In this document: in pieces, positions 25,391 to 49,456 of the stretch
Layout of the letters: each line of letters begins with the position of its first letter
How positions within the stretch are numbered: position 1 is the first letter of the stretch
Source of the DNA: an uncultured Actinomycetes bacterium
GTDB taxonomy: Bacteria; Actinomycetota; Thermoleophilia; UBA2241
DNA length: 64,000 nt
Assembly (NCBI GenBank): GCA_963783865.1
Contig: CAWAPD010000002.1
Location: 198,415-262,414 of the forward strand
Direction: 5' to 3'
Program-made: the position numbers and the translations under genes
Notes under the pieces: model-generated
The model's input: only the letters and a program-made list of their open reading frames with translations
Database searches by the model: none
Told to the model about the DNA's origin: nothing

Positions 25391-26887
25391 TCAGGGCAGT
25401 GTGCGGACCACGTGCTCGATCACGCGCAGCAGCGGCGTGGGGTACACGCCCAGCCAGATCACGACGGCCGTGAGGGCGCACAGGGCGAAGGCGGCGGCCG
25501 GCGGGGCGGCGGGCAGGGCGCCCGCCGGAGCGGGCGCCGCGCCAGCCGCCCCGCCGGCCGCCGCCGCGACACCGCCGGCGGCCTCGGCTTCGGCCTCGGC
25601 CGCCGGCACGTACATCGCCACGACGATCCGCGTGTAGTAGTAGAGCGACACGGCGCTCATCGCGACGAGCACGATGAGGAGGCCCCACAGCGACGCGCCG
25701 GCGCCGGCGTCGACCACGTAGAACTTGGCCACGAAGCCGGCCGTCAGCGGCAGCCCCGCGAGCGCGAACAGGACCACGGCGAAGACCGCCGCCAGCCACG
25801 GCTTGCGCACCGCCAGCCCACGGTAGTCCTCGAGCCGGTCGGCGTCGCGCTCGGGGGTGGACATCGCCGTCACCACGCCGAAGCCGGCCAGGGTGATCGC
25901 CGTGTAGGCCACGAGGTAGAAGACCACGGCCGTCGCGGCGGTCTCGCCGGTGGCGATGAAGGCGACGGTGACGTAGCCGAGCTGGGCGATCGACGAGTAG
26001 GCGAGCAGCCGCTTCACGTTCTGCTGGCGCAGGGCCAGCAGGTTGCCGGCGATCATCGAGGCGGCGGCGATCGCGACCAGGATCGCGTAGACGCTGCCCG
26101 TCGCGTGCAGGCCGCTGTCGCGATAGATGCGCAGGACGAGGGCGAAGACGGCTGCCTTGGAGACGGTGGCGATGAGCGCCGTCACCGGCGCCGGCGCGCC
26201 CTGGTAGACGTCGGGCGTCCACATGTGGAAGGGCACCAGCGCGAGCTTGAACCCCAGGCCGACGAAGATCAGCGCCAGGCCGCCGGCCAGAACGGCCGCG
26301 GCGGCGCCGGCGAGGTGCGCCGTGCCGAGGCCGGCGAACGACATCGTCCCGATCTCCGCGTAGACGAGCGCCATGCCGAAGAGCAGGAAGGCGGCGGTCA
26401 CGGCCGCCAGGATCAGGTACTTGACCGCCGCCTCGACCGCCTGGTCGCGCAGCCGCGGGTAGGCGATCAGCACGTAGAGCGACACGCTCAGCAGCTCCAG
26501 GCCGAGGAACAGCGAGGCGAACTGGGTGCTGGCGACCAGCGTCGAGCCTCCGAGCAGCGCCATCAGCAGCAGCGCGTAGTAGTCGCCGGGGTAGTCGTCG
26601 CGGTCCTTCAGGTACCGGTACGACAGCAGGGCGACGACCGCGGTCCCCGAGGCGAGCAGGGCGATGAAGAACAGCGTGTAGCCGTCGACCAGCAGCAGCG
26701 GCGTCACCTGGCGCACCGAGCGCGTGGCCGGCACGGCGAGCGTGGCGGCCGTGACGGCCAGGAAGAAGAGCGTGAGACCCAGCAGCAGCCCGTGGCTGCG
26801 CGTGCCGGTGCCCACCAGCGCGACCACGACCGGCGCCAGCGTCATCACGACGAAGGGCAACAGCGTGAGGATGTCGCCCGCGTGCAT
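25391..26887 (-). CDS. nuoN: NADH-quinone oxidoreductase subunit N
   Basis: 14-TM antiporter-like subunit; start ATG (MHAGDILT…) shares 1 nt with nuoM stop. Confidence 0.9.
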   Translation of the reverse strand: MHAGDILTLLPFVVMTLAPVVVALVGTGTRSHGLLLGLTLFFLAVTAATLAVPATRSVRQVTPLLLVDGYTLFFIALLASGTAVVALLSYRYLKDRDDYPGDYYALLLMALLGGSTLVASTQFASLFLGLELLSVSLYVLIAYPRLRDQAVEAAVKYLILAAVTAAFLLFGMALVYAEIGTMSFAGLGTAHLAGAAAAVLAGGLALIFVGLGFKLALVPFHMWTPDVYQGAPAPVTALIATVSKAAVFALVLRIYRDSGLHATGSVYAILVAIAAASMIAGNLLALRQQNVKRLLAYSSIAQLGYVTVAFIATGETAATAVVFYLVAYTAITLAGFGVVTAMSTPERDADRLEDYRGLAVRKPWLAAVFAVVLFALAGLPLTAGFVAKFYVVDAGAGASLWGLLIVLVAMSAVSLYYYTRIVVAMYVPAAEAEAEAAGGVAAAAGGAAGAAPAPAGALPAAPPAAAFALCALTAVVIWLGVYPTPLLRVIEHVVRTLP

Positions 26888-28462
26888 CACGGCGCGGAGC
26901 TCCCGGTCGCGGCCGACAGGGCGGCGGGCGAGGGCGGCGGCGGGGCTGGCTGCGAAGCAGCGGTCCCCGCCGCCGCTCCGCCGGCCTTCGCCTGCACCTG
27001 CACATTGACGACCGCCGGGCGCGACGTGTTCAGCACAGGCTGCGGGTAGACGCCCAGCCACAGCAGCGGCGCGATCATGAAGGCCATCACCAGCGCCTCA
27101 CGCGCCGTGAGGTCGGCCAGCCGCCAGTCGTGCACGTTCTCGCCCTGGAACACACGCTGCATCAGCCACAGCGAGTACACGGTCGCGAAGACGAGGCCGA
27201 CGGCGGCCAGCACGGTGGCCGGCTCGCTCACCGTCCAGGCGCCGATCAGGATCAGGAACTCGCCCACGAAGTTGCCCAGGCCCGGCAGGCCCAGCGAGGC
27301 CAAGGGCGAAGACCATGGCGACGGCGCCCATCCTGGGCGCCGTCGCCCACAGGCCTCCGAAGCGGTCCATGTCGCGGGTGTGCGTGCGTTCCTGCAGCAG
27401 GCCGACCAGGGCGAACAGCGCGCCGGTCGAGAAGGCGTGGCTCAGGATCTCGATCACCGCGCCCTGCAGCGCCAGCTCGTTCCAGGCGAAGATGCCGAGC
27501 AGCACGAATCCCATGTGGCTGACGCTCGTGTAGGCGACCAGCCGCTTGAGGTCGCGCTGGCCGTACGCCAGAAGCGCGCCGTACAGGATGCCGGCCACCG
27601 CCAGCCCCATCGCCCAGGGCGCGAACTTGAAGGCCACCTGGGGGAACAGCGGGATCTGGAAGCGGATGATCCCGTAGGCGCCGACCTTGATCAGCAGCCC
27701 GGCGAGCACGAGGCTGCCGGCGGTCGGCGCCTGCGTGTGAGCGTCGGGCAGCCAGCTGTGCACCGGAACCGCCGGCAGCTTGACGGCGAAGGCGGCGAAG
27801 AAGCCGAGCATCAGCAGCCACGCGGTCGTCTGCGACATGTGGGTGCCGAGCAGCTGCAGGTAGTCGAACGTGTAGACGCCGGTGTCGCGACCGTGGATCA
27901 CGTACAGGGCCAGGATCGCGACCAACATCAGCAGACCGCCGGCCTGGGTGAAGATGAAGAACTTGACCGCCGCGTAGACGCGCCGCTCGTGGCCCCACAG
28001 GGCGATCACGAAGTACATGGGCACGAGCATCATCTCGAAGAAGAAGACGAACAGGAACAGGTCGAGGGCGAGGAAGGCGCCGACCAGCGCCGCCAGCGTC
28101 CAGAGCAGCATGAAGTGGAAGAGGCCGACGCGGCGGTCGATGTCGCGCCACGAGACCACCACCGAGAGGGCGCCGATGCCGTAGCAGAGCAGCACCAGCA
28201 GCAGGCTGAGGCCGTCCATGCCCAGGAAGAAGCTCACGCCGAGCTGCGGGATCCAGGCGCGGTGGAAGGTCTCGAGCCAGGGCCCGTGGGCGGTGATCGA
28301 GAAGTCGCCGGCGTGGGCGATCCAGAGGCCGACGGTGGCGGCGAAGCCGGCCGCCATCGTCGCCAGGGCCACCCAGCGGGCGGCGTCCGGCCTGGCTCGC
28401 CCGGCGAGCCAGGCGGCCACGCCGCCCGCGAACGGCAGCAGCACGAGCACGGCCAGGATCAT
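26887..28462 (-). CDS. nuoM: NADH-quinone oxidoreductase subunit M, with apparent 1-nt frameshift near 27290-27300
   Basis: MILAVLVLLPFAGG… through …APRMGAVAMVFALGLA in one frame, conserved C-terminus …ASLGLPGLGNFVGEFLILIGAW…YSLWLMQRVFQG in the next; start overlaps nuoL stop (ATGA). Confidence 0.85.
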
Positions 28463-30339
28463 CGCAGCAACACCACCAGGGCGCCGGCGGCGACGCCGAT
28501 GCCGACGACCAGCGCGTACGAGCGCACGCGGCCGTTCTGGGTGAGGCTCAGGCCGCGGTTGGCGGCCCGGGTGAGGGCGGCGATGCCGCCGACCACCGGC
28601 TCGACGAGGTCGTTGCGCGAGACGTGGGCGAACCACCTGGCCGGCGCGACGAACACGGTGTCGTAGAGCCGGTCGAAGTCCCAGCCGCGATAGAGGAACA
28701 GGGCGGCGCGCGACGTGCTGGGCGCCAGCGCCCAGCCCTCGCGCGCCGCCCGGCGCAGGTACACCCACCAGGCGGCGAGCAGGCCGACCAGCGTCACCGC
28801 CGTCTCCACCGCCGTGGTGAGCCAGGTCGCCGAGGTCAGGCCCTTGGTCACCGTCTCGGGCACCGACGTCGTCAGGAAGCCGGCGAACGGCTGCCAGGCG
28901 GTCCAGGCGCGGGGCAGCGCCAGGAAGCCGGCGACCAGCGACAGCACGGAGAGCACGTACAGCGGCAGCTTCTCGGCCGAGCTCGGGCGGTGCCCGACCG
29001 GGATGCGCAGCGGACCCCAGAACACCACGAACACGACGCGGAAGATGTACACCGCGGTGATCAGCGAGCCGACCACGCCGGCCGCCCACAGCCAGACGCT
29101 GCCGTCGACCGAGGCCAGCGTCTCCTCGAGCACCAGGTCCTTGGCGTAGAAGCCCGAGGTGATCAGCGGCAGCGCGGCCAGCGCCGCGGCGCCGATCAGG
29201 AAGCTCCAGAAGGCGACCGGCAGGGCGCGGCGCAGCCCGCCCATGCGGAAGATGTCGTGCTCGTCCTGCTGGGCCTCGATGATCACGCCGGCGCTGAGGA
29301 ACAGCAGCGCCTTGAAGAACGCGTGGCACATGAACAGGAACACGGCGGCGGTCCAGGCGCCGACGCCGAGGGCCAGGAACATGTAGCCGATCTGGCTGAT
29401 CGTCGAGTAGGCGAGCACGCGCTTGATGTCGCGCTGGTTCAGCGCGCTCAGGCCGGCGTAGAGCAGCGTAGCGGCGCCGACGATCGCCACCGTCAGGCGC
29501 ACGTCCGGCGCCGCCGTGTAGAGGGCGTGCGTGCGCGCGATCAGGTAGACGCCGGCGGTGACCATCGTGGCGGCGTGGATCAGGGCGCTGACGGGGCTCG
29601 GACCGGCCATCGCGTCGGGCAGCCAGGTCTGGAGCGGCAGCTGCGCCGACTTGCCGACGGCGCCGCCCAGCAGCAGGAGGGCGGCGGCGGCGGCCACGCC
29701 GCCGCCGCCCCACACGCCCACCGTCGCCATCAGGGGCTGGATCGCCAGCGTGTGGCCCTTCGCGAACAGCAGGAACAGCCCGACGATGAAGGCCGTGTCG
29801 CCGACCCGCGTGACGATGAACGCCTTGCGCCCCGAGTACACGTTCTGCAGGTCCTTGTGCCAGAAGGCGATCAGCAGGTAGCTGCACAGCCCCACGCCCT
29901 CCCAGCCGAGGAACAGCAGCACGAGGTTGTCGGCCAGCACCAGCACCAGCATCGAGAACACGAACAGGTTCATGTAGACGAAGAACCGCCGGTAGCCGTC
30001 GTCGCGCGCCATGTGGCCGGTCGAGTAGAGGTGGATGAGGAAGCCGACGACGGTGATGACGAGCATCCAGATGAGCGACACCGCGTCGAGCGTGAAGGCG
30101 ACCTGGGGCCGCAGGCCGGCGACGCTCCACCAGGTCCACAGGACCTGGTGGTAGGCGTCGCCGGCCGGCGGCGAGGCCAGGAAGCTCGTCGTCACGACCA
30201 GCGCGACGACCGCCGACAGGCCGATCGACCCGGCGCCGACCCAAGCCACGCCGCGACGCCCGAGCAGGCCCCCGGCGAACAGCAGCACCGCGAACCCCAG
30301 CAGGGGCAGCGCCGGCACGATGGCGAGCAGCCACAGCAT
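28459..30339 (-). CDS. nuoL: NADH-quinone oxidoreductase subunit L
   Basis: 626 aa; …LGWEGVGLCSYLLIAFW…, long C-terminal amphipathic region. Confidence 0.9.
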   Translation of the reverse strand: MLWLLAIVPALPLLGFAVLLFAGGLLGRRGVAWVGAGSIGLSAVVALVVTTSFLASPPAGDAYHQVLWTWWSVAGLRPQVAFTLDAVSLIWMLVITVVGFLIHLYSTGHMARDDGYRRFFVYMNLFVFSMLVLVLADNLVLLFLGWEGVGLCSYLLIAFWHKDLQNVYSGRKAFIVTRVGDTAFIVGLFLLFAKGHTLAIQPLMATVGVWGGGGVAAAAALLLLGGAVGKSAQLPLQTWLPDAMAGPSPVSALIHAATMVTAGVYLIARTHALYTAAPDVRLTVAIVGAATLLYAGLSALNQRDIKRVLAYSTISQIGYMFLALGVGAWTAAVFLFMCHAFFKALLFLSAGVIIEAQQDEHDIFRMGGLRRALPVAFWSFLIGAAALAALPLITSGFYAKDLVLEETLASVDGSVWLWAAGVVGSLITAVYIFRVVFVVFWGPLRIPVGHRPSSAEKLPLYVLSVLSLVAGFLALPRAWTAWQPFAGFLTTSVPETVTKGLTSATWLTTAVETAVTLVGLLAAWWVYLRRAAREGWALAPSTSRAALFLYRGWDFDRLYDTVFVAPARWFAHVSRNDLVEPVVGGIAALTRAANRGLSLTQNGRVRSYALVVGIGVAAGALVVLLR

Positions 30340-30650
30340 CAGCCGCGCATCCTCGAGGCCTCGTCCACGTCGAGCGTGCCGAGCAAACGGCGCAGGAGCA
30401 GGGCGAGGGCCAGGCCGACGGCCACCTCGGCGGCCGCCATGGTCAGCACGAAGAGGAACATGACCTGGCCGTCGGCCTGGCCCCAGCGCGCCCCGGCGGC
30501 GACGAACGCCAGGCCGGTGGCGTTGACCATCACCTCGATGGAGGCGAGCACGAAGATCAGGTTGCGGCGCACGAGCACGCCGACCAGGCCGATGGCGAAC
30601 AGGATGCCGGCGACGACCAGCGCCAAGTCGACGGGGATGTGACCGTTCAC
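30339..30650 (-). CDS. nuoK: NADH-quinone oxidoreductase subunit K
   Basis: 103 aa, 3 TM; GTG start overlapping nuoJ stop (GTGA). Confidence 0.85.
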
Positions 30651-31240
30651 GCCGGCACCTCCACGTCGCGGGCGAGGTCCTCGCTGCTTGACGGCGCCTC
30701 GCCGGGTCCGGCCGCCGTGTCGCCCGCGGTCGCCGCGTCGCGCAGCGTCTCCTCGTCGCGCAGGCGCCGCTGGCCGAGGTGGCGGGCCCCGATCAGGGCC
30801 GCGAACAGCAGCATCGATGCCAGCTCGACGCCGAGCGCGTAGGCGCCGAACAGGGTCGCCCCGACCGCGCCCGGACCGACGGTCGCGACGGCGGCGCCGC
30901 GGTTGCCGCCGCTCAGCAGGAAGATCAGCTCGACGACCAGCACGATGCCCAGCACCACCGGCCCCACCCACATCGACGGCCGGATGCGCAGATGCTCGAC
31001 GACCTCGCCGCCGAGGTCGAGCAGCATGACGGCGAACAGGATCAGCACGACGATCGCGCCGGCGTAGATGATCACCTCGAGCGCGGCCACGAACGGCGCC
31101 CCGAGCGTGTAGAACATGACGGCGACGGCGAGCAGCGACACCACGAGGTACAGCAGCGCGTGCACGGCGCTGCGGCGCGTGATCACCATCGCGGTGGCGA
31201 ACACCGCCACGATCGACGAGATGACGAAGACCGTCTCCAC
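30647..31240 (-). CDS. nuoJ: NADH-quinone oxidoreductase subunit J
   Basis: 197 aa, 5 TM, acidic C-terminal tail. Confidence 0.85.
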
Positions 31241-31256
31241 GCTCAGTCCCCACCGC

Positions 31257-31823
31257 TCACGGCAGCAGCCCCCGCAGGTCGCCGGGCGGCTGCTCCCGCT
31301 CGGCCTCGCCCTTGCCCTTGCCGCCGATGGCGACCCCGGCCACGCGCCAGAAGTCGTAGTCGTGGTACTTGCCGGGCCCGTCGATCAGCAGGTCCTCCTT
31401 CTCGTAGACGAGGTTGGCGCGGGCGTACTCGCTCATCTCCATGTCGGGGGTGAGCTGGATCGCGTACGTCGGACACGCCTCCTCGCAGAAGCCGCAGAAG
31501 ATGCAGCGGCTGAAGTTGATGCGGAACCAGGCGGGATAGCGGCGGCCCGTCTCGTCCTGCGTCGCCTGCAGGGCGATGCAGTCGACCGGACAGGCCGCCG
31601 AGCACAGGTAGCAGGCCACGCAGCGCTCGCCGCCGTCGGGGTCGCGAGAGAGGATGATCCGGGCCCGATAGCGCGGCGGCGTGTACATGATCTCGTCGGG
31701 GTACTGGATCGTGGCCCGGCCGGCGCCGGCGTGAGTGAGCACGACCCAGATGCCGGCCAGCGGGCTGGCCAGCCAGCGCCACCCACGGCGCCACGCCCCG
31801 GGCCGGTCGCCGCCGACCCTCAC
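31257..31823 (-). CDS. nuoI: NADH-quinone oxidoreductase subunit I (2×[4Fe-4S])
   Basis: …[16 protein letters not shown]… and …[16 protein letters not shown]…; GTG start overlapping nuoH stop (GTGA). Confidence 0.9.
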
Positions 31824-32845
31824 GGCGCGCTCCTGGCCACGACGACCGCCCCGACCACCAGCAGGTTCAGCAGCGAGACGGGCAGCATCACCTTCCAGCC
31901 CAGTTGCATGAGCTGGTCGTAGCGCGGCCGCGGGAATGTGCCGCGCACCACGACGAAGAACGCCAGGAACAGGATCGTCTTCAGCAGGAACCATACGATC
32001 GGCGGCAGCCACGGTCCCAGCCAGCCCCCGAAGAACAGAACGACGATCAGCGCCGAGATCAGCCCCAGGGCCGCGTACTCGCCGACGAAGAACATGCCGA
32101 ACTTCATGCCCGAGTACTCGGTGTGGAAGCCGGCCACGAGCTCGCTCTCGGCCTCGGTCAGGTCGAACGGCAGACGGCGCGTCTCGCCCAGGCCGGCCAG
32201 GATGAACACGATGAAGGCCGGGAACTGCGGCACCACGTACCAGAGGCCGCGCTGGGCCTCGACGATGTCGACCAGGCGGAACGAGCCGGCCAGCACCACG
32301 ACGCCGACCAGCGAGAGCCCCATGAAGACCTCGTAGCTGACCATCTGCGCCGCCGCCCGCAGGCCGCCGACGAGCGGGTACTTGCTGTGCGACGACCAGC
32401 CGGCGAGCACGACGCTGTAGACCGCCAGCGACGACATCCCGAGGAAGAAGAGCAGCCCCACGTCGAGGTCGGCGACGACGATCCGGCGCGTGAACGGCAC
32501 GACCGTGAACGAGAGCAGCACCGCGACCATCACGATGCCGGGGGCGAGGATGAACACCGCCCGGTCGGCGAACGGCGGCACCCAGTCCTCCTTGGTGAAG
32601 ATCTTCACCGTGTCGGCGACCACCTGCAGCAGGCCGCCCCAGCCGACGCGGTTGGGGCCGTAGCGGTCCTGCACCAGGCCGAGCAGGCGGCGCTCGAACC
32701 AGATCATGCCGGCGGCCATGTTGAGCGCCACGAACAGCACGAAGGCGACGATCAGCAGCTGCCAGTACCAGGCGGTGACGGCGACGGTCACCGGCAGGGC
32801 GAGCGCCGGCGGGGCGGCGGCGATGAGCGCCGTCACGGCGCTCAT
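31820..32845 (-). CDS. nuoH: NADH-quinone oxidoreductase subunit H
   Basis: …[19 protein letters not shown]…, …[21 protein letters not shown]…; ATG overlapping nuoG stop (ATGA). Confidence 0.9.
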
Positions 32846-37031: not shown

Positions 37032-37066
37032 GGGCAGCGCCGGCCGCGTCTCGCCGGCCGCGCCGC

Positions 37067-37531: not shown

Positions 37532-37570
37532 GGCCGCGTCCTCTTCACGACATCCTCTTCATCGCGGCCC

Positions 37571-39352: not shown

Positions 39353-39353
39353 C

Positions 39354-40010: not shown

Positions 40011-41410
40011 TCGCCACCTCCGGAGGCGGACCCCGCTGGCGGCGACGGCGCCCCGGCGGCCGCCCGGGCAGCCACAGGCTGCGGGACGGCGGCCGCCGTC
40101 CTCGCCGTCGCCTGAGCCGCCTTCGGCGCCTTGGCCGGCGCCGACCCGCTCAGGACTGCCGTCACGGCGAGGATCGCGGCCGCGACGGCGATCTCGGCCA
40201 CCACGCTCTGGCGCAGCGGCCGCACGTCACCGCGGCGCCGCACGGCCGGCACCGAGCGGTAGCGGCTCAGGGCGCCGAGCCCCACGATGACGAGCACGAG
40301 CGCGAGCTTGAGCAGCAGCAGCCGGCCGTAGCGCGTGCCGGTCAGCGCCGAGAGCGAGCCGACCTCGACGGCGGCCCGCGCCAGACCGGTCACGATCACG
40401 GCGGCGAGGGCCGCACCGGCCATGGTCGAGAAGCGCGAGACCACCTTCGCGCGCTCGTCGCCGGTGGACCCCCGGATCGCGAGGAGCAGCCATGGCAGAC
40501 CCCCGACCCAGCAGCCGACGGCGAGCAGGTGCACCCACTGCGCGGTCAGGTTGACGAGGCGCGCGGCCGACGGCGCGTCGGCGTGACCGGCGACGACGTG
40601 GGCAAGCATGCCCAGGGCGCCGGTCACGCCGACGGCCAGCAGCCCCCAGCGCCCGGCGCCCAGCTCGAGCGACAGCACGGCGACGCCGCTCAGCAGGACC
40701 AGGGCTCCCAGAGTCACGAGGTTGCGCCCCTCCGCGGTGTCGAACAGCGGCAGCAGGGAGGCCGCCCGGATGAGGGCCTTGTCGGCGTACATCATCACCA
40801 CGACGCCGGCGATCGCCACCAGCCAGGCGGAGCGCAGCAGCACCCGCCCACCCACGGGCAGCTCGCCGCGCAGCGCCACCCAGCAGACCGCGGCCGCCCC
40901 GACCAGCAGCGCCAGGCCGCAGAAGATCAGCCAGCGCCCGACGTCCGAGGCAACCGACACGCCGGCCGAGCCCGGCGAGGGTGGAGCGACGATCACCGGC
41001 GGTGCCGGCACCCGCACCCCGAACGTGAACACGCCGGCTTCGGGGTGCCCGTCAACAGAGATGTTCTGCCAGCTCACCGTGTAGCCGCCCACGGGCAGGG
41101 TCCACCGCAACGGCACCTCGAGCGACAGCGGGTCGCCCGGCGCGCCGATCGCGGCGCCGGCCCCGGCGACGGGTGCGCCGGAGGGCCCGAGGAGCTGCGC
41201 GCTCGAGTGGGTGACGTCGATCGGCTCGGCGAACGTGAGCACGATCACGGCGGGCGACTTCTGGACGGTCGAGCCCGGTGCAGGGGTCGCACCGGTCAGG
41301 TAGGCATGGGCCCATGCCGGACAGGCCGTCAGCCCGAGGACCGCCGCGCAGACGACGACCGCGGCGACCGCCCCGATGCTCCGATGTACGACGCTCCTCG
41401 CTCTCATCAC
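40007..41410 (-). CDS. CopC-CopD fusion copper protein (YcnJ-like): periplasmic CopC cupredoxin-like domain + 8-TM CopD domain
   Basis: Signal peptide ending …AWA|HAYL (His1 Cu site of CopC), …[23 protein letters not shown]… CopC core, CopD region with conserved His (…[15 protein letters not shown]…); GTG/ATG start 4 nt after caa3 subunit I/III stop. Confidence 0.8.
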
Positions 41411-41414
41411 ACGC

Positions 41415-43886
41415 TCACAGCAGGTAGACGACGAAGAAGATCGCGATCCAGACGGCGTCGACGAAGTGCCAGTAGTAGGTGGCCGCCTCGGCCATGCCCA
41501 GGTTGCCGCGCTGGGTGGCTTCTTCGACGGCCGCCGCCTCGGCGGGGTCCTCCGGCGGCGGCCCCGGCGGCCGCCACGAGGTCCGCATCAGCAGGTAGAT
41601 CAGGATCACGATGCCTGCCGAGACGTGCATCGCGTGGAGGCCGGTCAGGGTGTACAGGGACTCACCGCGCAGCCCGGCCGAGAACCCGAAGCCGGCGTGG
41701 GTCCACTCCCAGATCTCGGCGCCGAGGAACACCGCACCCAGCACGATCGTGACGACCAGCAGCCCGTGGCACTGCCCCCGCGCCCCCTTGCGCCAGGCGA
41801 CCAGCGCGTAGTGGGCGGCCACGCCGCTGGAGAGCAGGAAGATCGTGGCGATCGCGGCCAGCTTGACGTCGAGCGGTGGGGTGAGCGTGACGGAGCCGTT
41901 GTGGATGCGCAGGTGCACGTCGGCGGCGATCAGCGATCCGAACAGCACGGCCTCGGAACCGAGGAAGGCGATCATTCCCCACCCGAGCGCCGTGAAGCGC
42001 TGCCCCGGCAGGTCCCGAGGCTCGGGTCCGCGCCACGGCGCGCCCATCCAGACGAGCATGACGACCGCCAGCAGCGCCAGGCCGATGGCCGCGATGACGA
42101 GTGAGGTCAGCAGACCGATGCCCACCACCAGCACGCCGAGGGCGAGCCACAGCGGCATCGGCGTGTTGTGCGCCACCCGCTCGATCCCGGGGTCGGCGGC
42201 GCCGGCCTCGCCGGGCTGGCCCGGCCCGGCCGGCGCCGCCCCGGCGGTCGGCTCCTCGGCACCTTTGGACTCGGCGTGCTTGACGTCCCACAGGGGTCGC
42301 TCGCTGGTCACGACGGGCAAGGTGTCGAAGTTGTAGTGCGGGGGCGGCGAGGTGGTGGCCCACTCCAGCGTCCAGGCGTCCCACGGGTCGTCGCCGGCCG
42401 GTCGTCCCGAGCGCAGGCTGTGCACGACGTTGACGAGGAAGATGATCACCGACATGCCGATGATGTAGGCGCCGATCGCCGAGACGAAGTTGAACGGCGT
42501 CCACCCGAGGCCGGGCGCGTACGTCGAGATGCGTCGCGGCATGCCCATCAGCCCCACGATGTACATGGGGAAGAACGTCAGCGAGACGCCCGTGACAGTG
42601 ACCCAGAAATGGACCTTGCCCACGCGGTCGCTCAACATGCGGCCGGTCATCTTCGGGAACCAGTAGTAGATGCCGGCGAAGACGGCGAAGACGGTGCCGG
42701 CGAAGAGCACGTTGTGCAGGTGGCCGACGATGTAGAAGGTGTCGTTGACCTGCCAGTCGAACGGCACCACCGCCTGCGTCACGCCGGTGATGCCGCCGAT
42801 CGTGAACAGGGCGATCAGCCCGCAGGCGAACAGCAGCGATGTCTTGAAGCGCAGGGCCCCGCCCCACATCGTGGCCAGCCAGTTGAAGATCTTCACGCCG
42901 GTGGGGATGGCGATCAGCATGCTGGTGCCGGCCATGATCGAGTTGAAGTAGGTCGGCAGACCCGTGGTGAACATGTGGTGTGCCCAGACCAGGAAGCCGA
43001 GGCCCCCGATCACGAGCAGCGAGACGATCATCGCCGTGCGCCCGAACAGCGGCTTGCGCGAGAAGACCGGCACGACCTCGCTCATCATGCCGAAGGCCGG
43101 GAGGATGAGGATGTAGACCTCGGGGTGGCCGAAGAACCAGAACAGGTGCTGCCAGATAATCGGGTCGCCCCCGATCGTCGTGAAGAAGTGCGTGCCGTAG
43201 TGGCGGTCGAGGTAGAGCATGCCGACCGCCGCGGTGAGGCTCGGGATGGCGAACAGGATCAGGAACGAGTTGATGTACGTGGCGATCGAGAAGACCGGCA
43301 TCTGGGACCATCTCATGTTCGGCGCCCGCAGCCGGTTCATGGTGACGATGAAGTTCACCGCGCCGGCCAGCGAAGAGGCCCCCAGCATGGCGATCGCCAC
43401 CGTCCAGAAGCTGACACCGTCGTGGGGCGAGAACACGCGCTCGGTGAGCGGGGCGTAACTGAACCAGCCGGTATCGAGGGCGGGCCCGAAAAGGAAGGCG
43501 CTGTAGAACAGCAGCCCGCCAAAGAGGAACGTCCAGTAGCTGAAGGCGTTGAGACGCGGGAAGGCCATGTCTTCGGCGCCGATCTGGAGCGGCACCAGGT
43601 AGTTGGCGAAGCCGATCAGGATCGGCATGCCGAAGAGGAACACCATCGTCGTGCCGTGCACCGAGAACAGCTGGTCGTAGGTGTTCGCGGAGACCACGTG
43701 GAGCCCCGGCAGCATGGTCTGCGTGCGCATGACCATGGCGAACGAGGCGGCCACGAGGAAGAACAGCCAGGCCGAGCCGATGTACAGCGTGCCGATGCGC
43801 TTGTGGTCGGTCGTCGTCAGCCACGACGCAAGGCCGCGGCGCTCGGCCGGCAACTCGACGGCGATCGGCAGGGCCGGCGCGCTCAC
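41415..43886 (-). CDS. ctaD: Cytochrome c oxidase subunit I fused to subunit III (caa3-type, Thermus CaaB-like)
   Basis: 824 aa from GTG overlapping subunit II stop (GTGA); subunit I region (…WLTTTDHKRIGTLY…, …WFFGHPEVYILILP…, …AHHMFTTG…), C-terminal subunit III region ending …YWHFVDAVWIAIFFVVYLL; upstream 270 aa of the six-frame ORF spurious. Confidence 0.9.
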   Translation of the reverse strand: MSAPALPIAVELPAERRGLASWLTTTDHKRIGTLYIGSAWLFFLVAASFAMVMRTQTMLPGLHVVSANTYDQLFSVHGTTMVFLFGMPILIGFANYLVPLQIGAEDMAFPRLNAFSYWTFLFGGLLFYSAFLFGPALDTGWFSYAPLTERVFSPHDGVSFWTVAIAMLGASSLAGAVNFIVTMNRLRAPNMRWSQMPVFSIATYINSFLILFAIPSLTAAVGMLYLDRHYGTHFFTTIGGDPIIWQHLFWFFGHPEVYILILPAFGMMSEVVPVFSRKPLFGRTAMIVSLLVIGGLGFLVWAHHMFTTGLPTYFNSIMAGTSMLIAIPTGVKIFNWLATMWGGALRFKTSLLFACGLIALFTIGGITGVTQAVVPFDWQVNDTFYIVGHLHNVLFAGTVFAVFAGIYYWFPKMTGRMLSDRVGKVHFWVTVTGVSLTFFPMYIVGLMGMPRRISTYAPGLGWTPFNFVSAIGAYIIGMSVIIFLVNVVHSLRSGRPAGDDPWDAWTLEWATTSPPPHYNFDTLPVVTSERPLWDVKHAESKGAEEPTAGAAPAGPGQPGEAGAADPGIERVAHNTPMPLWLALGVLVVGIGLLTSLVIAAIGLALLAVVMLVWMGAPWRGPEPRDLPGQRFTALGWGMIAFLGSEAVLFGSLIAADVHLRIHNGSVTLTPPLDVKLAAIATIFLLSSGVAAHYALVAWRKGARGQCHGLLVVTIVLGAVFLGAEIWEWTHAGFGFSAGLRGESLYTLTGLHAMHVSAGIVILIYLLMRTSWRPPGPPPEDPAEAAAVEEATQRGNLGMAEAATYYWHFVDAVWIAIFFVVYLL

Positions 43887-44917
43887 TTCAGCTCCTCGAG
43901 GTAGGCGACAAGGTCGGCGATCTGCTGGGGCGGCAGCGGGACCGCCGGCATATGGGCGCCCGGCTTGATCCCCTGCGGGTCGTCGATCCAGCGGGCCAGG
44001 TTGGCCGGCGTGTTGGTCAGCGTGTAGGCGGCGATGCCCTGCCGGCTGCCGAAGTGGGTCAGGTCGGGGCCGAATTCGCCCTGCAGGCTGGTGCCGCGGA
44101 TGGCGTGACAGCCGCTGCAGGGCAGGGCGGCGATCTCGCGGGAGCCGGCGATCGCCTGCGCCCCGACCGGCCGGCGCGCCGGCTTCTGCTGGTCGTCGAA
44201 CCAAGCCCCGAACTGCGCCGAGGTCTCGACCACGAACAGGAACCGCATCTTCGGGTGCGCCGTGCCGCAGAACTCGGCGCACTGGCCCAGGTAGGTCCCC
44301 GTCTTGGTGGGCAGGAACGTCGTGGCGTTCACGTGCGTGGGGATCATCTGCACCTTGCCGCCCATCTGCGGCACCCAGAAGCTGTGGATCACGTCGCTCG
44401 AGAGCAGGTTGATGTGCACGACCTGGTCGACCGGCACGTGGATCTCGTTGGCGGTGCGGAACGTGGCCCCGCGGTACTGTACGTCCCACCACCACTGGCG
44501 GCCGTCCACCGTGAGCTGGGTCGGGTCCGCCGACGACATGCCGACGAGCTGGCCGGTGGTGTGCAGGGTCATGGCGAACAGCACCGAGACGATGACCAGG
44601 GGGATCGCCGTCCAGACGAGCTCGATCCTGAGGTTGCCCCTGGTCTGGCTGGCTTCTTCCTCGGGCCGGTTGCGGAAGCGCACGACGTCGATGGCGAGCC
44701 AGATCCACACGGTCACGAGCACCGTGCTCAGAATCGCGAAGATCTCGATCGCCAGGCGGGCGATGTCGTGCGCCTCGGGGCTCGCCGGGTGGAATATGGT
44801 GGGAGCGTTGTCGGCGCAGGCCGCCAGCAGCACCAGGACCAGCAGCCAGAGGCCGGGCGCGACCCGCGTCGCGACGCGGGTCGCGCCCCGCCGCCGGGTT
44901 CGCGATGCGGCGGGCAC
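43883..44917 (-). CDS. ctaC: Cytochrome c oxidase subunit II fused to C-terminal cytochrome c domain (caa3-type, CaaA-like), lipoprotein signal
   Basis: Lipobox LLAAC|ADN, two TM, CuA site …HSFWVPQMGGK…GQCAEFCGTAHPKM…, C-terminal CSGCH haem c motif; start assigned to GTG 44917 (no in-frame ATG upstream of signal peptide), uncertain. Confidence 0.8.
   Translation of the reverse strand: MPAASRTRRRGATRVATRVAPGLWLLVLVLLAACADNAPTIFHPASPEAHDIARLAIEIFAILSTVLVTVWIWLAIDVVRFRNRPEEEASQTRGNLRIELVWTAIPLVIVSVLFAMTLHTTGQLVGMSSADPTQLTVDGRQWWWDVQYRGATFRTANEIHVPVDQVVHINLLSSDVIHSFWVPQMGGKVQMIPTHVNATTFLPTKTGTYLGQCAEFCGTAHPKMRFLFVVETSAQFGAWFDDQQKPARRPVGAQAIAGSREIAALPCSGCHAIRGTSLQGEFGPDLTHFGSRQGIAAYTLTNTPANLARWIDDPQGIKPGAHMPAVPLPPQQIADLVAYLEELK
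44855..44888. promoter_or_regulatory. 34-bp perfect palindrome GGGCGCGACCCGCGTCGCGACGCGGGTCGCGCCC in the ctaB / caa3 divergent region (inside the 5' end of the subunit II ORF as called)
   Basis: Verified base by base (17/17 complementary pairs); about 80-110 bp upstream of ctaB ATG. Confidence 0.6.
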
Positions 44918-44965
44918 GGGTACTGAGCGGCTGCCGACGAGGTCGTCGACGGAGGAGCCTGAGGG

Positions 44966-45802
44966 ATGGAGTACCTGCGGGTCACCAAGCCCCGCATCGT
45001 GGCGCTGTTCGCCGTGACGGTCCTGGCCGCCCTGCTGCTGGCCGGGCCGCCGAGCCCCGCGGTGAGCGCCGCCGTGCTCTGCGCGGCGGCGCTCACCGTC
45101 GCCGGCGCGGCGGCCATGAACGGCGCCCTCGAGTACCGGCTCGACGCCCGCATGGAGCGCACCCGCCGGCGCCCGGTCGCCAGCGGCGCCATCACGCCGC
45201 GCCACGCCCTGCTCTTCGGGCTGGCCCTGACGGCCGCCGGCGTCGTCGCCGTGCTCGCGGTCGGCGGCGCCCTCGCGGCGGCCTTCGCCGCCGCCGGCGC
45301 CGCCTACTACGTCGTGGTCTACACGCTGTGGATCAAGCCCCACACCGGCCTCAGTTCCATCCCCGGCGGACTGGCCGGCGTCTTCCCCGTGCTCATCGCC
45401 TGGGCCGCCGCCGGGGCGCCGGCCGACGCCGACATCGCCTTCGTGTGCCTGCTCATCGTCGCCTGGTCGCCGCCCCACTTCTGGGCTCTCGCCTACGCCC
45501 GCGAGACCGAGTTCGCGGCCTCTGGCATCCCCGTGCCCCCCGTCGTCTACGGGGACCGCGCCGCCGGCCGCCAGCTGCTGGTGGCCACCGCCGTGCTGGT
45601 CGGGATCACCTTCGTGGCCGCCGCCACGCTCTACGGGTGGCTGTTCTGGGTCGTGGCGCTCGCCGGCGGCGCGGCCCTGCTGGCCGCGGCCGCGCTGGTC
45701 GCGCGCCGCGGCTCGCGCCGCGCCGCCTGGACGCTGCACAAGCTCTCCGGGCCCTACCTGGCCCTGCTCCTGGCGGCCGTCGTCGTCGAGCGGCTGCTGT
45801 AG
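44966..45802 (+). CDS. ctaB: Protohaem IX farnesyltransferase (haem O synthase)
   Basis: 278 aa, 8-9 TM UbiA-fold; …LRVTKPRIVAL…; RBS GGAGGAG; divergent from caa3 genes, convergent with qcrB. Confidence 0.85.
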   Translation: MEYLRVTKPRIVALFAVTVLAALLLAGPPSPAVSAAVLCAAALTVAGAAAMNGALEYRLDARMERTRRRPVASGAITPRHALLFGLALTAAGVVAVLAVGGALAAAFAAAGAAYYVVVYTLWIKPHTGLSSIPGGLAGVFPVLIAWAAAGAPADADIAFVCLLIVAWSPPHFWALAYARETEFAASGIPVPPVVYGDRAAGRQLLVATAVLVGITFVAAATLYGWLFWVVALAGGAALLAAAALVARRGSRRAAWTLHKLSGPYLALLLAAVVVERLL

Positions 45803-45819
45803 GTCGCGGCGCTCGTCCA

Positions 45820-47190
45820 TCACGCCACCGCCGTCGTCGCGCGCCGCCAGGCGCGGAACAGCAGGTACGCGAGCAGTGCGATCACGAACGGCAGCATGAC
45901 CGTCAGCAGCTGCAGGATCGCCAGCAGGGTCGGCTGGTGCCAATGGAACACCACCGCGAACACGTCGTTGCCCCCGCCGATGAGCAGCACCATGACGAAG
46001 GTGAACAGGCCCAGGGCCACGGCCATTCGGCCGGGCCGGGCCGACGGCGGGTCGAGCACGTTGTGGAACCCGCGCCCGGTCACCGCCGCGTCGAGCCAGG
46101 GCCAGATCAGGAGGAACCCGACGATCAGCCCGGGCAGCAGGGCGGCGGGCCAGAACAGCGCCGGCAGCGCGTAGCTACCGATGTGGATGTCCCACGAGGG
46201 CATCATGCGCACCGCCCCCTCGAGCCACCCCGTGTACCAGTCGGGCTGGGCGAACGAGGTCGAATCCCACGGCGTGTAGGGCCCATACAGCCAGACCGGG
46301 TTGATCTGGAAGAAGCCGCCCATGATCGTCAGCAGGCCGCCCACGGCCATGAAGAAGCCGGTCGTGCGCAGGGCGTAGGCGGGCATGAGCGGCGTGCCGA
46401 CGACGGTGCGGTCGTCGCGACCGCGGCCCGGGTACTCCGTGTGCCGCTGCAGCCACAGCAGCCCCAGGTGGGCGCCGAGCAGGCCGGCTATGAGGGCCGG
46501 GATCAGGAAGATGTGCACGGGGTAGAGGCGGGCGATCAGCGTCTCGCTGGGGAACGAGCCGCCGAACATCAGCGAGGCGAGCTGCGGGCCGACCAGCGGG
46601 ATGGACTGGGTGATCGAGTAGGCGATCCGCAGGCCGGTGCCCGACAGGAGGTCGTCGGGCAGCGAGTAGCCGAACACGCCGTTGGTGAACACCATCGTCA
46701 GCAAGCCGAGGCCGATCAGCCAGTTGACGCGCCGCGGGCGCCGATAGGCGCCGGTGAAGAACAGGCGCGCCAGGTGGATCGAGACCGCCGAGGCGAACAG
46801 CAGGGCCGCCCAGTGGTGGATCTGGCGCACCAGCAGGCCCCCACGGACGTCGAAGCTCAGGTCGAGGACCGAGCGATAGGCCGCCGACACGGTGGTCCCG
46901 TCGAGCGGCTTGTAGCTCCCGTGGTAGACGACCGGCGTCTGCGAGGCCGAGAAGAACAGGGCCATGAAGACGCCGGTCACGACCAGCACGATGAAGCTGT
47001 AGAGTGCGATCTCGCCGAAGAAGAACGACCAGTGGTCGGGGAAGATGTGGCGCAGCTCCTCGCGCAGCACGCGGCTGCCGCCGAGCGTGTCGTCGAGCCA
47101 GTCGCCGGCGGCGTGCGCGGCGTCGCGGACCTTGCGGCGGCCCACGCCGAACGAGGCGCCGAGCTGTCTGGTCAGGCGCGTGTCAGGCAT
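45820..47190 (-). CDS. qcrB: Cytochrome bc1 (menaquinol-cytochrome c reductase) cytochrome b subunit
   Basis: 456 aa; haem-ligating His pairs in helices (…RQIHHWAALLFASAVSIHL…, …YPVHIFLIPALIAGLLGAHL…). Confidence 0.9.
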   Translation of the reverse strand: MPDTRLTRQLGASFGVGRRKVRDAAHAAGDWLDDTLGGSRVLREELRHIFPDHWSFFFGEIALYSFIVLVVTGVFMALFFSASQTPVVYHGSYKPLDGTTVSAAYRSVLDLSFDVRGGLLVRQIHHWAALLFASAVSIHLARLFFTGAYRRPRRVNWLIGLGLLTMVFTNGVFGYSLPDDLLSGTGLRIAYSITQSIPLVGPQLASLMFGGSFPSETLIARLYPVHIFLIPALIAGLLGAHLGLLWLQRHTEYPGRGRDDRTVVGTPLMPAYALRTTGFFMAVGGLLTIMGGFFQINPVWLYGPYTPWDSTSFAQPDWYTGWLEGAVRMMPSWDIHIGSYALPALFWPAALLPGLIVGFLLIWPWLDAAVTGRGFHNVLDPPSARPGRMAVALGLFTFVMVLLIGGGNDVFAVVFHWHQPTLLAILQLLTVMLPFVIALLAYLLFRAWRRATTAVA

Positions 47191-48103
47191 ACACGTTCCA
47201 GAAGCCGGGGCCGATGGGCTCCTTGAAGTCGCTCTGCGCGACCAGGAACCCGTTCGCGTCGACAGCCAGCGGGAGCTGCGGCAGGGGGCGCGCGGCCGGT
47301 CCCGAGACCGGCCGCGCGCCCCTCAGCACGTCGAAGGTCGACTGGTGGCAGGGGCACAGCAGCACCTGCGCCTGGTCCTCGTACTGCGACACCGCGCAGC
47401 CGGCGTGGGTGCAGACGCGCGAGAAGGCGAGGAAGCCGTCGGGACTCCACGACTCGCGGCCGGGCAGGGGGGTGAACCGCCCGGGCAGGCGCAGCAGTGC
47501 CACCTGCGAGTCGCCGGCGTCGGTGTGACCCTCGGGGAACGCGACCAGGAACCCGCCGGCGGCCAGCGCATCGCGGGTCACCGGCTGGCCGTCGATCGTC
47601 ACCAGCCTGGCGCCCGGGGTCCAGTGGGTGTGGAACGAGCGGCCGCGCGGCCGCGAGCCGAACGCGCCCACGAGCGCGAGCTGGCTCAGGGCGAAGACCG
47701 TGGCACCGGTCACGAGGAGGCCCGTCAGCAGGCGTCGCCGGGTGAACAGCGACGCCTGGCGATGCAGCTCGTCTCCCAGCACCGCGCGCTCTTCCGCGTC
47801 GTCCGGCGGGATCGGGTACCGGCCCACCGCTGATTGGTCCTCGGGCCCGACCAGGTCGCGGCCCCAGTAGCTCAGCGACAGCGCCAGCCCCAGCAGGGCG
47901 GCGCCCAGCGTGCCCCCGAGCCAGGCGTTGTCGGCGTCGAGCACGAACGCCACGACGAAGCCGATGGCGCCGGCGATCGTGATCAGCGCCCCGAGTGCCA
48001 CGGGCCAGCCCGAGCGCCGGTGGGCGCGGGACGGAGGCGCCGGCGCCCCCGGCGCCGGCCCCGCCTCGACGGCCTGCGGCTCGCGCACCGGCGCGTCAGC
48101 CAT
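47183..48103 (-). CDS. qcrA: Rieske [2Fe-2S] iron-sulfur subunit of bc1 complex
   Basis: 306 aa; Rieske boxes CTHAGC … CPCHQS; 3 TM. Confidence 0.9.
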   Translation of the reverse strand: MADAPVREPQAVEAGPAPGAPAPPSRAHRRSGWPVALGALITIAGAIGFVVAFVLDADNAWLGGTLGAALLGLALSLSYWGRDLVGPEDQSAVGRYPIPPDDAEERAVLGDELHRQASLFTRRRLLTGLLVTGATVFALSQLALVGAFGSRPRGRSFHTHWTPGARLVTIDGQPVTRDALAAGGFLVAFPEGHTDAGDSQVALLRLPGRFTPLPGRESWSPDGFLAFSRVCTHAGCAVSQYEDQAQVLLCPCHQSTFDVLRGARPVSGPAARPLPQLPLAVDANGFLVAQSDFKEPIGPGFWNVYA

Positions 48104-48875
48104 GCGCGCCCTCCTTGCGATGGGCCAGCCAGACGGCGACGAGGAGCATTGCGACGAGCAGGAACACCGACGCGACGCCCTCGGTCACGGGGCCGTAGTA
48201 GCCGAGCCCGCGCCCGCCGGGCGACGGCGGGCTGCCGATGACCTCGACGTAGAGAGCCACGGCGGTCTGCTGCGGCACGGTGAAGGTGGTGCCGGCGAAC
48301 AGCGGCATGTTGTCGGGGCCGTAGATCATCGCCGCCAGCGCCTCCGCGGGCGGGTAGTCCGACAGGTTGGGCGCGTTCTTGATGCCCTGGGTCAGCGCGC
48401 CGCCGCGGCCCACTGCGCTGTGGCATCCCGAGCAGTAGAGGCGGTAGAGCTGGCCGCCCTGAGCCGCGGTCGCCGAACGTGCCGCGGGATCCGAGAGCGT
48501 TCCGGCCACGTAGGCCGCGACCTGGTCGATCTGAGCCGGCGACAATCCCTCGAACGCCGGCATCCTGATCCCACCCCGGGTCACCATCCCGGCCACGAGG
48601 CTGGCCGCGGCGTCCGGGGCGAGGGACGGTCCGATCTTTCCCTCGCCCCGGGCGCCGTGACAGTGCTTGCAGTTGGCGGCGAACAGCGCCGCTCCGGGAT
48701 CGGCCGGCACGGACGCCGGCGAGGTGACGGGAGCCGGCGAGGTGACGGCCGAGGGCGTGCCCGACGGCGATCCCGACGCCGCGCCCGCCGTCAGCGCACC
48801 GGTGGTGAGCACGGCCACGACGACCGCCAGCGTGCATCCCGCAAGCCAGACCGCGAGCCGACCGCGCGCGCTCAT
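48096..48875 (-). CDS. qcrC: Dihaem cytochrome c subunit of bc1 complex
   Basis: Two CxxCH (CKHCHG, CSGCHS), C-terminal TM anchor; ATG overlaps nuoA stop (ATGA). Confidence 0.85.
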   Translation of the reverse strand: MSARGRLAVWLAGCTLAVVVAVLTTGALTAGAASGSPSGTPSAVTSPAPVTSPASVPADPGAALFAANCKHCHGARGEGKIGPSLAPDAAASLVAGMVTRGGIRMPAFEGLSPAQIDQVAAYVAGTLSDPAARSATAAQGGQLYRLYCSGCHSAVGRGGALTQGIKNAPNLSDYPPAEALAAMIYGPDNMPLFAGTTFTVPQQTAVALYVEVIGSPPSPGGRGLGYYGPVTEGVASVFLLVAMLLVAVWLAHRKEGAHG

Positions 48876-49264
48876 CCCCGCCCCCGGCGCGAACGTCCGC
48901 TGGTGCCCCAGTCGAGCGCCCGCAGCCGCCACAGGTACGCCAGTGCGGCCGCCAGCAGCGTCACGAACACGGCGAGCTCGACGTAGCCGGTCCAGCCCAG
49001 GCTGCGGGCCGCGACCGCCCAGCCGAAGATGAACGCGACCTCCAGGTCGAACACCACGAAGAAGATGGCGACCTGGTAGAACTCGATCGAGAAGCGCCGG
49101 GGCAGGCCGCCGGCGGGATCGATCCCCGACTCGTAGCGGTCGCTCGTGCCGAGGTCGCGATGGCGCTGGCCCAGCACCATGGGCAAGCCGATCATCGTCG
49201 CCGTCAGACCGACGACGATCGCGGTGTAGACGAGGAACGACCAGGTGGCCCCGACCGCAGGCAT
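48872..49264 (-). CDS. nuoA: NADH-quinone oxidoreductase subunit A
   Basis: 130 aa, 3 TM; …YESGIDPAGGLPRRFSIEFYQVAIFFVVFDLEVAFIFGWA… diagnostic NuoA/ND3 motif; RBS GGGAGG. Confidence 0.9.
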   Translation of the reverse strand: MPAVGATWSFLVYTAIVVGLTATMIGLPMVLGQRHRDLGTSDRYESGIDPAGGLPRRFSIEFYQVAIFFVVFDLEVAFIFGWAVAARSLGWTGYVELAVFVTLLAAALAYLWRLRALDWGTSGRSRRGRG

Positions 49265-49456
49265 CAGCCGCCCGCCTCCCGGCGGGCGTCCCTTTCGTGG
49301 CCTGGCAGCACTTCCCCCTTCACGTCACACGACTCCCCGCGACGGCGGTCCGCCCCGCAACGACGCGGACCGTCCGAAGGACAACCGCTGGCAACGTACC
49401 CTACCGAGCGCCAGCCGTAAATGTTTGGTGCGACTGCAGGTGTGGAGGCGGCGCTC

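Follow-up and report, generated by a model that had tools for sequence, protein, structure and literature searches.

An uncultured soil actinobacterium of the class Thermoleophilia carries, on the minus strand of the 64,000-nt stretch of contig analysed here (hereafter the window), a roughly 24-kb respiratory locus (25391-49264) in which genes for complex III, complex IV and a copper protein lie between nuoA and nuoB of the complex I (nuo) operon. The interval between nuoA and nuoB spans 8.9 kb and holds seven non-nuo genes, one of them on the opposite strand, and the order read along the minus strand is nuoA, qcrC, qcrA, qcrB, then ctaB on the plus strand, coxII-cyt c, coxI/III, copCD, nuoB, nuoCD and nuoE through nuoN. 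The best explanation, and one that we consider likely, is a heritable gene-order variant of the Thermoleophilia in which an 8.9-kb module of complex III, complex IV and CopCD genes sits inside a 13-gene nuo operon of the Escherichia coli type (clade E). All of the parts belong to known families, and only their arrangement and combination are unusual, which makes this a new gene order rather than a new machine. Full-text literature searches turned up neither complex III/IV genes placed between nuoA and nuoB nor a single operon for complexes I, III and IV, and the layout appears to be undescribed.

Gene identities were assigned with Pfam and NCBIfam profiles and by direct reading of the frames, and in this way every gene that an earlier note on this DNA had named was recovered where that note had placed it. 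The distance of nuoA from nuoB, with the block of complex III, complex IV and CopCD genes between them, is real. The note had also counted all 14 complex I functions, which are present, but in 13 genes rather than 14, as nuoC and nuoD are fused. Nineteen of the 20 genes of the locus are co-directional with gaps of at most 39 nt, and the non-coding share is ~160 nt of ~23.9 kb; ctaB, which is antisense, is the only break in the co-directional chain, as had been claimed. Its description as a divergent gene holds with respect to coxII (48-nt gap) but not with respect to qcrB, with which it is convergent (17-nt gap). The G+C content (GC) of the window is ~71% throughout and, like the G+C content at third codon positions (GC3), is uniform; GC3 marks one long run of minus-strand genes over 25391-49264 that is interrupted by one plus-strand gene. 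Within the 64-kb window, none of the genes of the locus occurs a second time. One entry of the open reading frame (ORF) listing, 31243-31794, was tried as nuoI and rejected, being in the wrong frame and having no Pfam match; the true nuoI frame ends at 31257.

At both ends of the inserted module, the nuo genes are joined to it by overlapping stop and start codons. The nuoA stop codon overlaps the qcrC ATG as ATGA, and the copCD stop codon overlaps the nuoB ATG, again as ATGA. Between these two points, qcrC/qcrA and qcrA/qcrB overlap by 8 nt each, coxII and coxI/III overlap as GTGA, and copCD follows coxI/III after 4 nt, so that the junctions reported earlier for nuoA through nuoB are all as described. 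Coupling by ATGA or GTGA had been said to continue from nuoB to nuoN, and 7 of the 11 junctions there are indeed ATGA/GTGA or 1-nt overlaps (nuoE/nuoF, for example, is GTGA), but the other four are gaps of 1, 39, 16, and 36 nt. With nuoA coupled to qcrC at one end and copCD to nuoB at the other, complex I is expected to be co-expressed with complexes III and IV, and, judging from these junctions, co-transcription of the complex I genes with those of complexes III and IV is almost certain. The predicted co-expression of nuoA with qcrC and of copCD with nuoB is robust, since it holds with or without transcription through ctaB.

Affinities of the three complexes

By sequence comparison, the complex I of the window is of the E. 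coli type, clade E. All 14 core subunit functions are encoded in the 13 genes, with A, B, C+D, E to H, and J to N identified by Pfam and NuoI by frame reading. The fused nuoCD scores 903.9 bits against PRK11742, the NCBIfam C/D equivalog, above its 840-bit cutoff; Spero et al. (2015, PMC4453560) found such a fusion almost only in clade E. Among solved homologues, NuoCD matches E. coli NuoCD at 729 bits and Mycobacterium smegmatis NuoD at 275 bits, NuoG matches its E. coli and M. smegmatis counterparts at 842 and 176 bits, and the best solved homologue of NuoA is E. coli NuoA. The host is an actinobacterium, whereas the textbook actinobacterial complex I, such as that of M. smegmatis, belongs to a different clade, as the NuoD scores also reflect. 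The window genes resemble a clade E nuoA-N operon in having all functions, the fused nuoCD, the long NuoG, best solved matches in E. coli and the conserved order B-CD-E-F-G-H-I-J-K-L-M-N; they differ in that 8.9 kb of other genes separate nuoA from the rest, and the contiguous nuoA-N operon of textbooks is not found in the window. Interrupted nuo clusters as such are not unheard of, since the Spero survey, which scored nuo genes as ‘colocalized’ in 86% of genomes, tolerated fewer than 10 foreign ORFs (PMC4453560). Annotation rules that demand a contiguous nuoA-N may mis-score complex I as incomplete in genomes of this kind.

A separate feature was seen inside the coding sequence of nuoN, where 25490-25565 (minus strand) form a near-perfect 36-bp GC-rich palindrome, 92% complementary with a 4-nt loop. 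It encodes an Ala/Gly/Pro-rich insert, AAEAEAEAAGGVAAAAGGAAGAAPAPAGALPAAPPAAA, just ahead of the last hydrophobic stretch, and the 281 nt around it fold with z = -4.4 relative to shuffled sequences. The palindrome could represent a linker, an RNA element or a codon-level symmetry.

Complex III is, by its sequence, a bcc complex of the actinobacterial type, as indicated by the order qcrCAB, the QcrA_N domain, the QcrB profile score and the best solved homologues. QcrC contains two CXXCH motifs, QcrA contains the Rieske motif CTH...CPCH in addition to QcrA_N, and QcrB scores 534 bits against bc1_QcrB_actin (NF050120), above the 500-bit cutoff, with mycobacterial and corynebacterial QcrB as its best solved homologues at ~410 bits. 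QcrC and QcrA, on the other hand, remain below the curated actinobacterial NCBIfam cutoffs (QcrC, 137 bits with its best model, bc1_QcrC_actin, against 200 bits; QcrA, 223 bits with bc1_QcrA_actin against 275 bits). The order qcrC-qcrA-qcrB, the dihaem QcrC, the N-terminal domain of QcrA and the QcrB score are all shared with the ctaE-qcrCAB operon of actinobacteria such as Mycobacterium and Corynebacterium, which encodes the bcc portion of an obligate bcc-aa3 (III2IV2) supercomplex, but in the window qcrC is preceded by nuoA and not by ctaE, and the CtaE equivalent is fused to CtaD. Mycobacterial CtaC is without a cytochrome c domain, whereas oxidase subunit II of the window carries its own.

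The domain composition of the oxidase is that of a caa3 architecture, with a fusion of subunit II to cytochrome c and a fusion of subunits I and III. CoxII has the CuA motif H..CAEFCG..H..M and one CXXCH (CSGCH), and its best full-length solved homologue is subunit II of the Thermus thermophilus caa3 oxidase (191 bits). CoxI/III scores 676.7 bits against CtaD_CoxA (cutoff 670.75 bits) and aligns with the T. thermophilus I+III polypeptide (PDB 2YEV) over residues 21-822. The two enzymes share the same two-polypeptide architecture, with full-length matches to 2YEV chains A and B, and the subunit I domain of the window is about equally close to mycobacterial CtaD (536 bits) and to Thermus (515 bits). 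A difference from the Thermus enzyme lies in the GHPEVY motif with its conserved Glu in subunit I of the window, as this motif marks A1-type oxidases while the Thermus caa3 oxidase is A2-type. Of the relatives encountered for the genes of the cluster, the closest is P0255, a CoxI/III protein 93% identical to that of the window and encoded on a Joint Genome Institute (JGI) contig of 5,249 bp. Taken at the level of sequence, the chain is a mosaic of a clade E complex I, an actinobacterial bcc complex III and an oxidase of caa3 architecture, and all of it is encoded within ~24 kb, a fragment that could be cloned in one piece.

Two accessory genes accompany the oxidase genes, and their products would provide it with haem O (CtaB) and copper (CopCD). 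CtaB passes TIGR01473 marginally (211.7 bits, cutoff 210.3), and ctaB has a GC3 of 0.99 in its plus-strand frame. In CopCD, both Pfam domains are above their gathering scores and both NCBIfam scores are below cutoff (CopD, 110 bits against 195; CopC, 71 bits against 95); a signal peptide is followed by a mature N-terminus that begins with His, and a Caa3_CtaG domain was not found in the protein. Copper supply to the oxidase is its probable role by analogy, and a reasonable one because a part in building the Corynebacterium glutamicum bcc-aa3 supercomplex has been attributed to proteins with CopC/CopD domains, with copper supply as the proposed function (PMC9145763). The window protein shares its combination of a periplasmic CopC domain and a membrane CopD domain with C. 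glutamicum CopC (cg1884) and CtiP and with the Bacillus subtilis YcnJ-type CopCD, but, in contrast to the C. glutamicum factors, copCD is one fused gene that stands last in the oxidase unit and overlaps nuoB. A scan of species-representative genomes with CopCD returned only a 37% match to the CopC domain, in a Gemmatimonadales metagenome-assembled genome (MAG) and with no respiratory context.

Layouts in related lineages

Genomic contexts were compared for nine NuoB homologues (70-79% identity) and 80 metagenomic QcrB relatives, with annotation by tblastn using the window proteins; individual loci are designated by L numbers. Four layout states were distinguished, namely inserted, divergent, plain, and stand-alone. 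The inserted state is present in the window and in L002/L003, which are two independent assemblies from different samples that represent one lineage, with proteins ~62-64% identical to those of the window. The synteny comparison that the earlier note had called for thus finds the layout again in another lineage. The order in L002/L003 is nuoA, a fused qcrC-qcrA, qcrB, ctaB, coxII, coxI/III, nuoB, nuoCD and onward; all of the at least 19 genes, ctaB included, are on one strand, neighbouring genes overlap by 1-8 nt throughout the stretch from nuoA to nuoB, and copCD is absent. The QcrC-QcrA fusion is a single ORF of 556 amino acids (aa) at 2534-4204 of both L002 and L003, comprising the dihaem cytochrome c and the Rieske protein, and its two tblastn segments share one frame.

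The divergent state is represented by six contigs (L004, L086, L087, L091, L092, and L093), in which the block is transcribed away from a contiguous nuoA-nuoB across a qcrC–nuoA spacer of ~130-320 nt. These Thermoleophilia contigs have the same genes, the same block order including an antisense ctaB and, usually, copCD, and qcrC adjoins nuoA as in the window; reading along the contig, copCD, coxI/III and coxII point one way, ctaB the other, qcrB, qcrA and qcrC again the first way, and, beyond the spacer, nuoA, nuoB and the following genes point away from the block. They differ from the window in the opposite orientation of the block relative to the nuo operon and in the contiguity of nuoA and nuoB. 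Because the block adjoins nuoA in these six further contigs, linkage of complex I, III and IV genes is a trait of the clade. Within the block, ctaB lies beside cox genes in all relatives, antisense in L004, L086, L087, L091, L093, and L008 as it is in the window and co-directional in L002, L003, L005, and L006, and copCD directly follows coxI/III in L004, L087, and L091 also. In the plain state (L085 and L088/L089), nuoA-N is present and the 10 kb upstream of it are free of complex III/IV genes, and in the stand-alone state (L008), a block of qcrCAB, ctaB, coxII and coxI/III has unrelated flanks. A contiguous nuoA-nuoB in relatives had been put forward as a sign of an assembly chimera; most relatives have it, yet the arrangement is simply polymorphic. 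L085 shows a gap of 147 nt between nuoA and nuoB (9853-10001) where other plain and divergent loci have a 4-nt overlap. This gap could be a scar of block loss or an error of gene calling or long reads, and the contig has several frameshifts.

The nearest relatives are all from soil metagenomes. Both organism-named SmpB homologues (76% and 71% identity) come from Thermoleophilia MAGs, as do eight of the nine organism-named CoxI/III homologues, labelled ‘Thermoleophilia bacterium’, while the ninth is labelled only ‘Actinobacteria bacterium’. These homologues led to the rejection of Gemmatimonadota, which the distant CopC-domain match had briefly suggested as the host group. The gene neighbourhood from ftsE and ftsX to smpB and the GC of 71% are in keeping with a Thermoleophilia host. 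More distant QcrB relatives (45-53% identity) lie in classical actinobacterial ctaE-qcrCAB loci. In the cultured Thermoleophilia species Gaiella occulta, the nuo, bc1 and cox genes occupy separate, non-adjacent ranges of locus tags (PMC6741124).

Trees were built by simple neighbour joining (NJ) on query-anchored alignments and are crude. In these trees, the divergent loci form one group, and the window falls with L088, L002, and L085 in the other; the plain L085 is the closest relative of the inserted L002 at 77% identity, whereas trees of the complex III/IV proteins join the window to L002 in 163 of 200 bootstraps. A probable source of the inserted layout is the divergent one, which predominates among relatives; a rearrangement such as two inversions would have come first, and the spacers would then have been lost. 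A single inversion between the two layouts was considered and rejected, as it would put nuoA on the wrong strand, and at least two inversions or a transposition are therefore needed; no intermediate between the divergent and inserted layouts was found among the relatives examined. L002/L003 would then be a further consolidated stage, with ctaB flipped to the sense strand, qcrC and qcrA fused and copCD absent. We infer from these comparisons a stepwise operon consolidation from stand-alone to divergent, to inserted with an antisense ctaB, and to fully co-directional. Such a series would provide a natural case in which one multi-subunit operon takes in the genes for two further complexes, together with those for their cofactor factors, and remains functional, and, with several stages held by living relatives, a good model for the formation of super-operons.

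Transcription of the locus and competing explanations

In the reading of the locus as a heritable gene-order variant, transcription would start at one promoter region upstream of nuoA, possibly with a second start near or within ctaB. The nuoA gene would go with qcrCAB, and coxII, coxI/III and copCD would go with nuoB–nuoN; co-transcription together with translational coupling would then switch on the whole aerobic NADH-to-O2 chain together. The earlier note had gone further in proposing one transcriptional and translational unit, of which the coupling of nuoA to qcrC and of copCD to nuoB stands, whereas a single unit over the whole locus is no more than possible, given the antisense ctaB and the 48-nt spacer before coxII. 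We infer that one transcript across the locus is possible in the window but doubtful, and that its prospects are better in L002.

The promoter proposed at 49265-49456 could not be matched to a consensus, as this spacer contains no consensus sigma-70 site and only TTTACG-17-TACGTT was picked out, by eye. A search for the Rex operator (TTGTGAA-N4-TTCACAA, up to 3 mismatches) found none upstream of nuoA and one chance-level match inside nuoH. No recognisable ribosome-binding site precedes coxII, and a GGAGGAG Shine-Dalgarno sequence precedes the ctaB ATG of the window. In L004, L086, L087, and L091, (C/G/T)AGAAT-N7-ATG, which resembles a -10 box, stands directly before ctaB, and ctaB in these divergent-type relatives is probably leaderless. 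About 40 nt before coxII, L004, L086, and L091 have GTGCGAAGATG, and L087 has GTGATGATA. These conserved -10-like motifs occupy the ~70-nt ctaB/coxII spacer of the divergent-type relatives and are absent from the 48-nt spacer of the window, while L002 has no spacer at all, a pattern that favours read-through and fits a progressive loss of internal starts. The bidirectional qcrC/nuoA spacer of L004, L086, L087, L091, and L092 contains a conserved TCTACCATG-like element, with TTGACA or TTGATA 12 nt upstream in four of the loci, and L002 and L085 have a related CTGT..CTAC motif. A by-eye search upstream of nuoA in the window gave no convincing counterpart in the same orientation, and the element was not used as evidence.

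Several observations weigh against a selected, jointly transcribed variant. The antisense ctaB breaks the chain, and, before reaching coxII, a transcript from qcrB would have 837 nt of antisense ctaB to traverse, where it would run into the transcription of ctaB itself. That coxII has no recognisable ribosome-binding site and that no Rex operator was found upstream of nuoA likewise count against read-through. Consensus scans for sigma-70 promoters and intrinsic terminators over 24000-51000 gave nothing above shuffled expectation, although such scans are uninformative in DNA of 71% GC. In the NJ trees, the inserted lineages are not sisters for the nuo genes, with the plain L085 and L088 grouping with L002, which indicates that the inserted state was gained or lost more than once or was exchanged by recombination. 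The case for strong selection on the layout is the weaker for it. A precise exchange of the inserted state could come about by homologous recombination in the nuo genes on either side.

In an alternative reading, nuoA-qcrCAB, ctaB and coxII–nuoN are independent, tightly packed units with their own promoters and perhaps internal starts, regulated separately and brought into a selectively neutral order by inversions. The patchy phylogenetic distribution resembles neutral turnover, and the conserved -10-like motifs before coxII and ctaB in the divergent relatives imply that an internal start at coxII is ancestral. Since those motifs are missing from the 48-nt spacer of the window, and since the ATGA overlaps would still couple nuoA to qcrC and copCD to nuoB and keep complex I co-expressed with complexes III and IV even if the units were separate, we consider this alternative rather unlikely.

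A stronger proposal, that of the earlier note, is that the 24 kb form one mRNA for the stoichiometric, co-translational assembly of a I-III2-IV2 supercomplex. It gains from L002/L003, where all genes are co-directional with overlaps of 1-8 nt from nuoA to nuoB, and from the convergent qcrB/ctaB pair, which has no room for a terminator either in the window (17-nt gap) or in L004, L086, and L091, where the genes overlap by 4 nt. Actinobacterial bcc-aa3 oxidases are, moreover, obligate III2IV2 supercomplexes in solved structures (PMC9145763). Most relatives, however, encode the same proteins in two divergent units or at unlinked loci, which indicates that co-linear synthesis is not needed for function and that the clustering can be explained even if complexes I, III and IV do not associate physically. 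Operon order also does not set a 1:2:2 stoichiometry, and ctaB is antisense in the window. No supercomplex containing complex I is known for Actinobacteria. Stoichiometric synthesis of a supercomplex, as suggested by gene linkage, is accordingly an improbable account of the window. More improbable still is the version in which the entire chain is made from one ~24-kb mRNA, an E. coli-type complex I docks on the actinobacterial bcc-caa3 as a I-III2-IV2 megacomplex, and the conserved antisense ctaB acts as a built-in brake through which oxidase transcription and the supply of haem O/A are linked. By its gene linkage, this Thermoleophilia lineage is a candidate carrier of a bacterial supercomplex with complex I as a member.

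It was also considered that the isolated nuoA might be a spare paralogue serving complex III/IV expression or assembly, with nuoB–nuoN using another nuoA. The view is limited to 64 kb, and some bacteria carry two nuo operons (PMC4453560). This is nonetheless very improbable, because the window nuoA is full length, is orthologous to the nuoA standing immediately ahead of nuoB in relatives (60-69% identity, a range like that of the other subunits), has its best solved match in E. coli like the other nuo genes, and is the only nuoA in the window. An assembly chimera, in which a qcr-cta contig was misplaced inside a nuo operon, might be suspected because the contig is evidently metagenome-derived (NuoB has a 100% match on a 537-kb NCBI/ENA contig) and because many relatives have contiguous nuoA-nuoB, but it can be dismissed as extremely improbable: stop and start codons overlap precisely and in frame at both junctions, the only repeats at or near either of them are weak, codon-bias-driven matches, GC and GC3 are uniform, and the same topology is found in the independent L002/L003 assemblies from other samples.

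Feature coordinates and surroundings

Table 1 Genes of the respiratory locus and the spacer upstream of nuoA, with window positions
Feature	Position	Strand	Description
spacer upstream of nuoA	49265-49456	minus	192 nt; candidate promoter region
nuoA	48872-49264	minus	130 aa; Pfam Oxidored_q4 96 bits, full length; first gene of chain
qcrC	48096-48875	minus	259 aa; dihaem cytochrome c of bcc complex; Cytochrome_CBB3 twice, two CXXCH
qcrA	47183-48103	minus	306 aa; Rieske and QcrA_N (actinobacterial N-terminal membrane domain); CTH...CPCH
qcrB	45820-47190	minus	456 aa; cytochrome b; bc1_QcrB_actin (NF050120)
ctaB	44966-45802	plus	278 aa; haem O synthase; UbiA 150 bits; TIGR01473
coxII-cyt c	43883-44917	minus	344 aa; COX2_TM, COX2, Cytochrom_C; caa3-type subunit II
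coxI/III fused	41415-43886	minus	823 aa; COX1 510 bits and COX3; CtaD_CoxA
copC-copD fusion	40007-41410	minus	467 aa; CopC and CopD domains
nuoB	39354-40010	minus	218 aa; Oxidored_q6
nuoCD fused	37571-39352	minus	593 aa; NCBIfam PRK11742
nuoE	37067-37531	minus	2Fe-2S_thioredx
nuoF	35637-37070	minus	Complex1_51K, SLBB, NADH_4Fe-4S
nuoG	32842-35640	minus	932 aa, long E. coli-type form; Pfam domains
nuoH	31820-32845	minus	Pfam
nuoI	31257-31823	minus	frame read directly; two 4Fe-4S motifs (CxxCxxCxxxCP)
nuoJ	30647-31240	minus	Pfam
nuoK	30339-30650	minus	Pfam
nuoL	28459-30339	minus	Proton_antipo_M and Proton_antipo_N
nuoM	27098-28462	minus	Proton_antipo_M
nuoN	25391-27061	minus	Proton_antipo_M

Directly downstream of nuoN and on the same strand, 22614-25208 (minus) encode an 864-aa protein with a clostripain-like Peptidase_C11 domain and BNR/Ycf48-like beta-propeller repeats. 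Further along, 7426-14767 (minus) hold a housekeeping string of ftsE, ftsX, an M23 peptidase with a PcsB-like coiled coil, an S41 CtpB-like protease, an RNB-domain RNase, smpB and a pterin-4a-carbinolamine dehydratase, followed by a tRNA at 7426-7499, and this tRNA was the only match in an Rfam scan of the window. On the other side of the locus, ~9 kb upstream of nuoA, a 465-aa Pyr_redox_2 flavoprotein is encoded at 58560-59957 (plus), for which a type II NADH dehydrogenase (NDH-2) and some other pyridine-nucleotide disulfide oxidoreductase are both conceivable identities. Two proteins of the Phosphoesterase family (PF04185) are encoded at 51697-54366 (minus) and 61662-62756 (minus), the larger of which (889 aa) is fused to beta-propeller/NHL repeats, and between their genes, at 55885-57240, lies the gene for a 451-aa sigma factor of the extracytoplasmic function (ECF)-like type with a long C-terminal extension.

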